A DNA stretch of 64,000 nucleotides from Betaproteobacteria bacterium HGW-Betaproteobacteria-3 (GTDB taxonomy: Bacteria > Pseudomonadota > Gammaproteobacteria > Burkholderiales > Burkholderiaceae_C), in contig PHCI01000010.1 in the NCBI GenBank assembly GCA_002842205.1, positions 28,460 through 92,459 on the forward strand. Direction: 5' to 3'. The notes below the pieces were generated by a model. That model saw only the letters and a list, made by a program, of their open reading frames with translations. It made no database searches and was not told where the DNA came from. Below are positions 56,721 to 58,406 of this stretch, piece by piece (within the stretch, counting starts at the first letter, position 1; every line of letters starts with the position of its first letter). The position numbers were made by a program, and so were the translations under genes.

Positions 56721-58406
56721 ATGTCACTGAAACTGTTCCACACCACCGGATTCGCCACCCAGCCGCTGGCCCCGGTGCCCACCGGGCGTGCCGGTCTGCG
56801 GCCGTTGTGGCTAATGGTGCTCACCAGTCTCTGGGTGGCCACGGCGTGCAACCTGGCGTTGTGGCGCGCATTGCATCAGCTGCACACGCTGGACACTCCG
56901 CGCGGTCTGCTGTTTGGGGCGGGCTTCGGGATCATGATCGCGGCGCTGACCTGCGCCCTGCTGAGCCTGCTGGCGTGGCGCTGGACGCTCAAGCCGGCCA
57001 TCACGCTGCTGTTGCTTGCGGCCGCCAGTGGCAGCCATTTCATGTGGGCCTACGGCGCGGTCATCGACAGTTCGATGATGGTCAACGTCATGCAGACGGA
57101 CGCGCGGGAGGTGCGCGACCTCTTGAGCTGGCAGTTGCTGGCCAGCGTGCTGGTGCTGGCCGTGGCACCGCTGATCTGGGTCTGGCGGCAACCGCTGGCT
57201 TACGGTGGCGGCTGGCGTCGACTGATCTCGAATTTTTCTATTTTCATAGCAAGCTTTGTTTTATTGGCAGGGGTTACAGCCATTATTTATAAAGATTTTT
57301 CATCGGTCATGCGCAACCACACCCAGGTGCGCTACCTCATCAACCCGCTGAATTCGTTGTATTCGCTGGGGGTGATCGCCACCAAACCGCTACGGCGCGA
57401 CACCTCGGTGCGCCTGCCCATCGGGCAGGACGCCCGCTTGGGCGCCCCACGCGGCGATGCCAGCCGCCCGCCGCTGCTGGTGCTGGTGCTCGGCGAAACC
57501 GCGCGCAGCGCCAGCTTCGGCATCAACGGCTATGACCGGCCCACCACGCCCGCGCTGGCGAAGCAGAACATTGTGAGTTTCCAGAACGCCTGGTCCTGTG
57601 GCACCAACACGGCCGCGTCCGTGCCGTGCATGTTTGCCCATCTCGACAAGGAAGGGTATGAATCGCGTCGGTCAGAGTTTGAGAGTCTGATCGACGTGCT
57701 GGCGCGCGCGGGCCTGGCGGTGCTGTGGATCGACAACCAGTCCGGCTGCAAGGGCGTGTGCGAGCGGGTTGCAAACGTCATCACCTCCACGCTCAAGGAC
57801 CCCGAACTGTGCGCCGATGGCGAGTGTTTTGACGAGATCATGCTGCGCGGGATTGACCAGCGCATGGCCGCATTGCCTGCGGAGCGCCGGGCGCGCGGCG
57901 TTGTGGTGGTCATGCACCAGATGGGCAGTCACGGCCCGGCCTATTTCCGGCGCAGCCCGGCGGCCTTCAAGAAATTCATGCCCGAATGCGCCACCAATGC
58001 GCTGCAGAACTGCCCGCGTGAACAGGTCGTCAACGCCTACGACAACACCATCCTGTACACCGACCACTTCCTGTCCTCGGTCATCGACTGGCTCAAGACG
58101 CAGGAGAAATCAACCGCACCGGCGCTGATGTACGTGTCAGACCATGGCGAGTCGCTGGGCGAGAACAACATCTACCTGCACAGCCTGCCCTACGCCATTG
58201 CACCCGATGTCCAGAAGCAGGTGCCGTGGATCACCTGGTTTTCAGCCCGCTTCGAGCAGCGCACGGGCATCACCACGGCCTGCCTGAAGCAGCGCGCCGC
58301 CACGCGCATCACCCACGACCATTACTTTCATTCGGTGCTGGGCCTGCTGGGAGTGCAGACAGACCTCTACGACCCGGCCAGGGACATCACCGCACATTGC
58401 GGCTGA
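56721..58406 (+). CDS. eptA: Phosphoethanolamine--lipid A transferase (EptA family)
   Basis: Five N-terminal TM helices and a sulfatase-like domain (VLVLGETARSASFGINGY, HQMGSHGPAY, SDHGESLGE). The ATG at 56721 is preferred; the track ORF from 56148 is an over-extension across fghA. Confidence 0.85.
   Translation: MSLKLFHTTGFATQPLAPVPTGRAGLRPLWLMVLTSLWVATACNLALWRALHQLHTLDTPRGLLFGAGFGIMIAALTCALLSLLAWRWTLKPAITLLLLAAASGSHFMWAYGAVIDSSMMVNVMQTDAREVRDLLSWQLLASVLVLAVAPLIWVWRQPLAYGGGWRRLISNFSIFIASFVLLAGVTAIIYKDFSSVMRNHTQVRYLINPLNSLYSLGVIATKPLRRDTSVRLPIGQDARLGAPRGDASRPPLLVLVLGETARSASFGINGYDRPTTPALAKQNIVSFQNAWSCGTNTAASVPCMFAHLDKEGYESRRSEFESLIDVLARAGLAVLWIDNQSGCKGVCERVANVITSTLKDPELCADGECFDEIMLRGIDQRMAALPAERRARGVVVVMHQMGSHGPAYFRRSPAAFKKFMPECATNALQNCPREQVVNAYDNTILYTDHFLSSVIDWLKTQEKSTAPALMYVSDHGESLGENNIYLHSLPYAIAPDVQKQVPWITWFSARFEQRTGITTACLKQRAATRITHDHYFHSVLGLLGVQTDLYDPARDITAHCG
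57231..57300 (+). repeat. AT-rich dispersed repeat-like segment, copy 8, in frame inside eptA
   Basis: aatttttctattttcATAGCAAGCTttgttttATTGGCAGGGGTTAcagccattatttataaagattttt, compared with copy 3 ...aATAGCAAGCTatagcctATTGACAGGGGCTAtc... 19 of 70 nt are G/C by hand count. Confidence 0.6.

Follow-up and report, generated by a model that had tools for sequence, protein, structure and literature searches.

The 64-kb window analysed here (64,000 nt of contig PHCI01000010.1 of Betaproteobacteria bacterium HGW-Betaproteobacteria-3, 65.3% G+C overall) contains a gene for an EptA-family phosphoethanolamine--lipid A transferase, and inside this gene, in frame, lies an AT-rich patch of 70 nt that resembles a short repeat scattered over the intergenic regions of the same stretch. 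This observation is confirmed. We favour, with a probability of roughly 0.72, the explanation that the patch is repeat-derived coding sequence, i.e. that a near full-length copy of the ~70-nt repeat came to be translated as the fifth membrane helix of the enzyme. The two elements at issue are the following.

56721–58406, + strand: gene of an EptA-family phosphoethanolamine--lipid A transferase, 561 aa (assigned by Pfam, NCBIfam, the match to structure 5FGN and synteny)
57231–57300, + strand: AT-rich, putatively repeat-derived patch encoding membrane helix 5 (the repeat profile described below aligns 57239–57295 to its model positions 13–69)

The patch (AATTTTTCTATTTTCATAGCAAGCTTTGTTTTATTGGCAGGGGTTACAGCCATTATTTATAAAGATTTTT) starts 510 nt into the 1683-nt coding sequence and encodes NFSIFIASFVLLAGVTAIIYKDFS, residues 171–194 of the protein. 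With 19 G+C out of 70, it is the minimum of the window: no other 70-mer of the 64 kb has 19 or fewer. The G+C fraction at the first, second and third codon positions (GC1, GC2 and GC3) is 0.29/0.33/0.21 in the patch and 0.62/0.48/0.86 in the remaining gene, and T occupies 11 of the 24 second positions of the patch. Residues 171–194 align without gaps with the fifth and last membrane helix of NmEptA (PDB 5FGN), just ahead of the soluble domain.

The open reading frame (ORF) has the EptA/MCR architecture, an N-terminal five-helix membrane domain with a sulfatase-fold domain, and matches the Pfam families EptA_B_N (PF08019) and Sulfatase (PF00884). The best solved relative is NmEptA (5FGN, E = 8e-108), the match spanning residues 29–560. 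The NCBIfam model NF028537, "phosphoethanolamine--lipid A transferase", is passed (584 bits, cut-off 500), but the score against the EptA equivalog NF008619 is 505, under the cut-off of 660, and thus we call the protein "EptA-family" and not a proven EptA equivalog. The columns of E259, T297, H404, D474 and H475 are invariant across 18 orthologues; we take these residues to be catalytic, matching E246, T285, H395, D465 and H466 of MCR-1. None of the eight full-length sequences of the helix-5 comparison given below has a disrupted ORF, and the hydropathy of helix 5 is equal for patch-coded (1.9–2.6) and GC-coded (1.8–3.0) forms; judging by these sequences, the helix gained from the repeat evidently serves as a membrane anchor.

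The repeat is an AT-rich unit of ~70 nt, present in the window in nine clear copies and a degenerate tenth one, in both orientations. All of these are intergenic, unlike the patch, which is the only deep intragenic copy in the 64 kb. Unless stated otherwise, the copies were identified by alignment and profile.

4489–4565, + strand: repeat copy, which also contains the 3' end (~10 codons plus stop) of thrC, the threonine synthase gene on the − strand
7748–7820, − strand: repeat copy, shared over ~9 codons plus stop with the 3' end of an aminotransferase gene
12053–12129, + strand: repeat copy ("copy 3" of an earlier annotation), shared over ~4 codons plus stop with the 3' end of dnaB
22510–22585, + strand: repeat copy
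22797–22867, − strand: repeat copy
28186–28259, − strand: repeat copy
44554–44626, − strand: degenerate tenth repeat copy, left out of the profile (nhmmer, 18.5 bits, E = 8e-5)
45084–45155, + strand: repeat copy, with the first ATG (45128) of the downstream ORF inside
46322–46398, − strand: repeat copy
60676–60752, − strand: repeat copy

The consensus is roughly GA..GCTAC(T)-N8-(A/G)TAGCAAACTAT-N6-TTTGACGGGGGCT-...-TTTTATT.AAA, the invariant TAGC and TTGAC(R)GGGG being the conserved cores. Three − strand housekeeping genes end inside repeats (4536–4565, threonine synthase; 7794–7820, aminotransferase; 12117–12129, dnaB; codons and stops in each case). Thus, three copies supply C-terminal codons and stops, and the family is routinely translated at gene ends.

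The nature of the family was assessed from several sides. The whole window yields no match to Rfam at gathering thresholds, hence the repeat is not a described RNA family, and RNAalifold finds no consensus pairs and no conserved fold in the ten copies, so that hairpins of the type seen in repetitive extragenic palindromes (REP) or miniature inverted-repeat transposable elements (MITE) are not supported. The sole inverted repeat of the unit is internal and short (~5 nt, GCTA(Y)-N8-(R)TAGC); no terminal inverted repeats were found in the aligned copies, and no target duplications are evident by eye in their flanks. REP/REPIN elements, which RAYT transposases mobilise, have a stable imperfect palindrome with a conserved GTAG end; the copies in the 64 kb conserve (A/G)TAGC, but no stable palindrome is predicted for them. 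A role as a "mobile promoter" was considered and rejected, as the orientation of the copies relative to the neighbouring genes is inconsistent and some copies lie between convergent genes. On these grounds the family matches no described RNA and reads neither as a mobile promoter nor as a clear REP or MITE; with no terminal inverted repeats found and no stable palindrome predicted, it is better not classed under either of the last two labels. Our literature searches found no account of such a Comamonadaceae repeat. In a metagenome collection, the exact core TAGCAARCT-N8-TTGACRGGGG has five matches, none of them in an eptA: three are true copies in contigs of ~58% GC, and two look like chance matches in low-GC contigs (the loci include L059, L061 and L063). 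In its exact-core form the family seems narrowly distributed. As a separate observation, the ATG at 45128 inside one copy is the candidate start of a 400-aa ORF without a Pfam match, and a terminator-like hairpin (45069–45087) stands just before it.

The evidence that the patch belongs to this family comes from an nhmmer profile built from the nine intergenic copies only, with the patch and the tenth copy excluded. Run against the window, the profile recovers the nine copies, the tenth one and the patch (57239–57295, 15.5 bits, E = 7e-4), with nothing else below E ~1 and no other AT-rich island. In 5000 dinucleotide shuffles of the patch the maximum was 6.0 bits and the real score was never reached (0/5000), and only two of 5000 AT-biased synonymous recodings of the patch peptide reached it. 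The 10-mer ATAGCAAGCT occurs in the window solely at 12070, in a repeat copy, and at 57246 (chance expectation 0.03), and 57262–57276 agrees with TATTGACAGGGGCTA, at 12086, in 13 of 15 positions, the offset from the 10-mer being 16 nt in both places. Alignment of the patch to the copies with MAFFT and hmmalign is ungapped, in register, and extends over nearly the whole repeat unit. Of 69 positions, 27–41 are identical between the window patch and the copies (25–42 for all five patches compared), against 30–48 between the copies themselves; the closest copies are 12053–12129 and 60676–60752, with 41/69 each. The cores of the window patch are ATAGCAAGC and TTGGCAGGGG (one mismatch). Thus, the similarity exceeds that given by composition or chance, and, with the L053 match given below, the homology between patch and repeat is real.

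On all descriptive points the first-pass annotation of this stretch is borne out: it had reported a patch with 19/70 G+C in a GC-rich gene, in frame and with the frame open, encoding the last transmembrane helix ahead of the sulfatase domain, and sharing a 10-mer and a 13-of-15 match with the copy at 12053–12129 at matching spacing. The scoring by a repeat profile that it had suggested puts the patch above background.

Orthologues were collected as 51 related loci from reference genomes, to which a protein search added relatives 90, 87, 72, 68, 66 and 65% identical. The DNA of the closer relatives has a common neighbourhood (grpE-dnaK-dnaJ ... esterase-eptA-radical SAM), and thus they are orthologues. 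The eight full-length sequences of the helix-5 comparison are listed by protein identity to the window protein, GC3 of the patch and GC3 of the rest of the gene.

Window: 100%, patch 0.21, rest 0.86
L052: 90%, patch 0.25, rest 0.84
L058: 87%, patch 0.17, rest 0.79
L053: 72%, patch 0.42, rest 0.86
L057: 68%, patch 0.67, rest 0.88
L056: 66%, patch 0.46, rest 0.90
L054 (Polaromonas sp. C04): 65%, patch 0.67, rest 0.83
L055 (Variovorax terrae): 65%, patch 0.96, rest 0.97

A partial locus, L041 (83% identical over residues 1–240), has a patch GC3 of 0.42. The strongest match to the window profile is found in L053, whose patch (GAATGCTATTGTATTTATAGCAAGCTTTGTCGTATTGACAGGGACTTTGGCGCTTATTT) scores 31.7 bits (E = 5.7e-9), above most true intergenic copies in the fetched loci, and retains the 5' inverted repeat GCTAT-N8-ATAGC, with the protein 72% identical. 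The patches of L041 and L056 score 19.5 and 17.9 bits, respectively. Synonymous recodings attain the real score in 0/10000 cases for the L053 peptide and in 2–3/5000 for that of L056. The cores in the L041 and L053 patches are TTGACGGGGG and TTGACAGGGA. Variants of the 3' half are also shared with the family: GGGGCTACAGCC occurs in metagenome copies, and GGACAACAG in L056 copies as well as in the L052 patch.

The ~45 other orthologues have a helix of equal length whose GC3 deviates from that of the remaining gene by at most ±0.16, with no profile match there. No indels in helix 5 are seen in 18 aligned orthologues, nor in the closer beta- and gammaproteobacterial members of a 54-orthologue alignment, where short gaps occur only in three very distant sequences (27–30% identity). 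Thus, the copy replaced the helix and added no residues; the orthologue alignment proposed in the first-pass annotation shows that, outside the clade, GC-rich codons encode a helix of equal length and that no 23-codon gap occurs there. Separately, a Polaromonas metagenome-assembled genome (L007, 55% identity) has an AT-rich helix 5 (GC3 0.33 against 0.74 in the rest of the gene) without a profile match, which could reflect a separate event, or one that has decayed completely.

As for direction, related repeats with a 5' GCTAY-N8-RTAGC module, a 3' T-rich tail and varied cores are present in genomes where eptA is GC-coded (V. terrae and the Polaromonas loci L012, L014 and L007), hence the family is broader than the patch. 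The patch is a compositional outlier within its own gene, not within intergenic space. The direction from repeat to gene is the economical one. Related repeats directly adjoin eptA in several relatives:

L056, 6317–6388: related repeat, 64 nt past the stop codon of eptA
L012, 2662–2733: related repeat adjoining eptA
L014, 2835–2909: related repeat adjoining eptA
L007, 2021–2083: related repeat adjoining eptA

Such adjoining copies could serve as local donors for a template switch.

As for age, a bootstrapped neighbour-joining tree with the helix columns excluded groups the window, L052 and L058 (100%), and these with L053 and L057 (84%); L056, L054, L055 and L011 form a near-polytomy, and bootstrap does not settle whether they join the AT-rich clade. 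Outside the patch, the share of conserved residues encoded by the same codon levels off at ~0.6–0.66 between 72% and 60% protein identity; thus, synonymous sites are saturated across the clade, and since the patch is common to syntenic orthologues 66–90% identical, the capture should be old. Judged from its presence in orthologues down to 66% identity, it is apparently neither private nor recent.

The encoded peptide carries a further trace. When the intergenic copies are translated in the patch frame, which has the fewest stops of the six and is open in 4/9 copies, they yield x-A-T/I-x-x-I-A-N/S-Y/F-x-x-L-T-G-A, and the patch motifs NAIV, IAS and LTG recur in them. The peptide "FIAS...LTG" is hence the protein-level signature of the repeat. 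The same signature exists in GC-coded form, in V. terrae (NALLFIASCALLAGT), Polaromonas sp. C04, L011 and several other database proteins, and because the patch peptide is near that of some GC-coded relatives, the capture may predate the AT-rich clade. There are two alternatives. The GC-coded signature helices could be recoded descendants of the same capture; this is favoured, since L054 retains ATA, GTA, TTG, GGG and ATT at the same positions and the tree is not contradictory. Otherwise, the ancestral helix was already similar to the product of the repeat, which would need in-register selection or luck, for example at the conserved G184.

The AT-richness of the patch has persisted and in part increased. 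In five full-length orthologues the patch GC3 is 0.17–0.46, compared with 0.79–0.90 elsewhere in the gene. The G+C fraction of the patch is 0.25–0.28 in the window, L052 and L058, lower than in any intergenic copy (0.32–0.44 over the same columns). By rough parsimony, GC-to-AT changes relate to AT-to-GC changes as 7:0, 6:0 and 6:1 in the lineages of the window, L052 and L058. In close relatives the identity of the helix is 54–71% versus 88–91% for the rest of EptA, the changes going between AT-rich codons. GC1 is lowered in the patches as well, and of 24 residues the patches have 9–12 from the set F, Y, M, I, N and K (6 in L056), the GC-coded relatives 3–6.

The codon usage of the window patch is correspondingly unusual. 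An index similar to the codon adaptation index equals 0.119 in the patch, the minimum of 14898 other 24-codon windows from 45 genes being 0.234 and the median 0.715; ATA is found once and TTA never among ~16000 other codons, and both are present in the patch. Thus, the patch is the most extreme rare-codon cluster in the lineage, and slow translation at helix 5 is plausible from its codon content. It is known that in GC-rich Streptomyces TTA codons and the bldA tRNA control expression. The eptA patch is similar in gathering within one gene codons that a GC-rich genome hardly uses (TTA, ATA), a likeness of codon content. The window contains no tRNA genes. As to the force that keeps the patch AT-rich, we would give about even odds that it acts locally on the DNA or RNA itself.

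Taken together, these observations suggest the following scenario. A copy of the repeat would have taken the place of the ancestral helix-coding stretch with the length unchanged, either by insertion and a compensating deletion or by template switching or conversion from a nearby copy; the data do not tell these routes apart. In the patch frame, the T-rich strand would give mostly hydrophobic residues, and an anchor helix presumably tolerates many hydrophobic sequences. A single capture, in or before the common ancestor of the eptA orthologues now 66–90% identical, would be sufficient, the protein having probably stayed intact and conserved since. Most lineages would then have kept all three codon positions AT-rich, and some become more so, against strong genome GC pressure, the candidate forces being slow translation via very rare codons, low mRNA structure, or an AT-preferring DNA-binding protein, whereas strongly GC-pressured relatives would have recoded the same helix in GC-rich codons. 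The first-pass annotation had proposed that a MITE was domesticated as coding sequence or that conversion copied the repeat onto a pre-existing helix. The repeat origin is supported by the profile, the shuffles, the recodings and L053; the label of MITE is not established, as neither terminal inverted repeats nor target duplications nor a conserved fold were found, and insertion followed by deletion is not separable from conversion or template switching.

Several observations weigh against this reading. No simple mechanism is known by which a mobile element could replace sequence without changing its length, and no terminal repeats or target duplications are visible. The patch peptide has N171, A177, S178, L182 and G184 in common with GC-coded relatives (e.g. 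V. terrae), G184 being present even in Neisseria EptA; had foreign sequence replaced the helix, this agreement would call for luck, for selection of in-register events, or for an older origin and later recoding in those relatives. The profile scores of L058 (1.6 bits) and L057 (4.7 bits) are weak. The single origin is inferred from a tree whose deep branches are weakly supported, the monophyly of all six patch-bearing sequences having 34% bootstrap. The AT-richness is not kept everywhere: recoding is partial in L054 and L057 and complete in V. terrae, and as strongly GC-pressured lineages have recoded the helix, there is no universal AT requirement. Finally, a promoter and terminator scan of 56600–58500 revealed no sense promoter and no terminator-like site in the patch, and the one promoter-like site detected, which lies antisense (57310 to 57282), is not shared by the relatives. 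A candidate internal promoter noticed by eye (TTGGCA-N18-TATAAA) was discarded: it fails the −10 rule of the scanner, and its −10 element is fixed by the Y-K codons.

The first alternative accepts the same origin but assumes AT-richness without function, refreshed by occasional ectopic gene conversion from intergenic copies. It would account for the faster evolution of the patch protein (54–71% against 88–91% identity in close relatives) and for lineage-specific profile scores, including the "young"-looking L053 patch with its 31.7 bits; the variant GGACAACAG of the L052 patch also occurs in repeat copies of other genomes, and repeats adjoin eptA in L056, L012, L014 and L007. However, the most AT-rich patches (L058, L052 and the window; 1.6–15.5 bits) are the least repeat-like and have a G+C content below every copy, and the conserved cores are just 10–13 nt, which is short for RecA-dependent conversion. 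As to concerted evolution of patches with the copies of their own genome, the matrix of patches against own-genome copies showed no own-genome preference, though very few copies per genome were compared. As the most AT-rich patches are the least repeat-like and none is closest to the copies of its own genome, refreshment by conversion is not favoured, and we consider it unlikely.

If there had been no capture, and the helix-5 codons had turned AT-rich in place (e.g. for a rare-codon pause), the likeness to the repeat would be a coincidence caused by the peptide type NA..FIAS...L.G. The presence of a similar peptide in GC-coded relatives, the AT-ward substitutions ongoing in three lineages, and the helix of the distant Polaromonas L007, AT-rich in its first half without a repeat match, agree with this. 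Vice versa, the recodings described above reach the real scores in 0/10000 (L053), 2/5000 (window) and 2–3/5000 (L056) cases, the collinearity extends over nearly the whole repeat, including positions free of peptide constraint, and the shifts of GC1 and amino-acid composition are not predicted by selection on codon speed alone, so that evolution in place seems very improbable.

The reverse direction, in which the helix-5 segment of eptA was mobilised and amplified into intergenic repeats, is suggested by the fact that homology itself has no direction, by the L053 patch scoring like true copies, and by the similarity of the peptide to ancestral helices; it is more doubtful still, as Polaromonas and Variovorax repeats with the same 5' module and other cores exist where eptA is GC-coded, the family thus looking broader and older, the patch is an outlier in the gene but not in intergenic space, and most copies have stop codons in the patch frame. 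Least credible of all is a mosaic gene, in which the helix was exchanged for a short tract recombined from the low-GC eptA homologue of a different organism: the YKDFS ending does resemble YKNFS/YKDFA of low-GC Methylococcales orthologues, but the low-GC orthologues L036, L037, L039, L042 and L047 have neither nucleotide likeness in the helix nor a profile match, and the match to the intergenic repeats of the genome itself would be left unexplained.

Within the favoured reading, capture of a repeat as helix-coding sequence, a bolder variant is that the helix-5 codons are dual-purpose, the captured repeat being also kept as a nucleic-acid element. It could act as a binding or nucleation site for a recogniser of the repeat or of AT-rich DNA, or as a programmed translational or mRNA-stability throttle made up of codons that are otherwise not in use in the genome. 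We regard this variant as speculative and rather doubtful; if true, it would mean that the level of a polymyxin-resistance-type enzyme is tuned, and would explain the retention and gain of AT despite synonymous saturation.

Translation of repeat DNA in frame is known already as a rare route from repeats to proteins. In the passages of a review (PMC10969869) that cite Ogata et al. 2000, 2002, Rickettsia palindromic elements (RPE) are described as lying in frame in protein-coding genes. The eptA patch is similar in being a dispersed short repeat that is translated in frame within a conserved functional gene: a repeat copy lies in frame in a conserved ORF and the protein is still constrained. RPE add ~50 residues, are palindromic, and occur in many genes of an AT-rich reduced genome, whereas here a helix was replaced at the same length by a unit without a conserved fold, in a 65% GC genome and as the sole deep intragenic copy in 64 kb. 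The part of the review citing Delihas 2007 treats intragenic ERIC/IRU and other MITEs that carry ORFs. Here too, small intergenic repeats are fused in frame with host ORFs, also at the ends of thrC, the aminotransferase gene and dnaB; but ERIC elements and MITEs have terminal inverted repeats and long hairpins, and the family of the window showed neither. Membrane-spanning segments can arise from thymine-rich non-coding DNA (Vakirlis et al. 2020, PMC7005711), and similarly a T-rich non-genic sequence here gives, in frame, a hydrophobic helix-like peptide; that case, however, concerns whole new ORFs in yeast, and the present one a single helix of an old bacterial enzyme. In the literature searched, no lipid A-modifying enzyme was described in which a membrane helix had been replaced. 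The present case differs from the known ones in the same-length replacement of an existing membrane helix, its status as an outlier in a GC-rich free-living lineage, and AT-richness persisting or growing over a long time.

If this reading holds, T-rich intergenic repeat DNA of a GC-rich bacterium can become a working membrane helix of a conserved enzyme, and the case would tie bacterial repeat biology to T-rich non-coding DNA as a ready source of membrane segments. Among syntenic orthologues, the helix ranges from very AT-rich through intermediate to fully GC-recoded, which offers a natural experiment on selection at the protein versus the DNA or RNA level. If the rare codons limit expression, they would constitute an unrecognised control point for a polymyxin-resistance-type function. 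Such patches are also open to misreading as foreign DNA or assembly errors.

Some minor observations were made in passing. Downstream of eptA in L052 (12473–13683), an IS3-like transposase pair (HTH_Tnp_1 and rve) is situated beside a truncated radical SAM gene. In the window, an AT-rich spacer upstream of a TonB-dependent receptor gene (22762–25101) contains a perfect 29-nt palindrome at 22663–22691 (CATCAAATGCGAATGATTCGCATTTGATG), which is operator-like and, we presume, possibly of the Fur type. A near-palindrome at 33177–33196 (TTGGTTATATTTCATAACCA), unrelated to the repeat family, is localized in the AT-rich divergent intergenic region 33124–33256.

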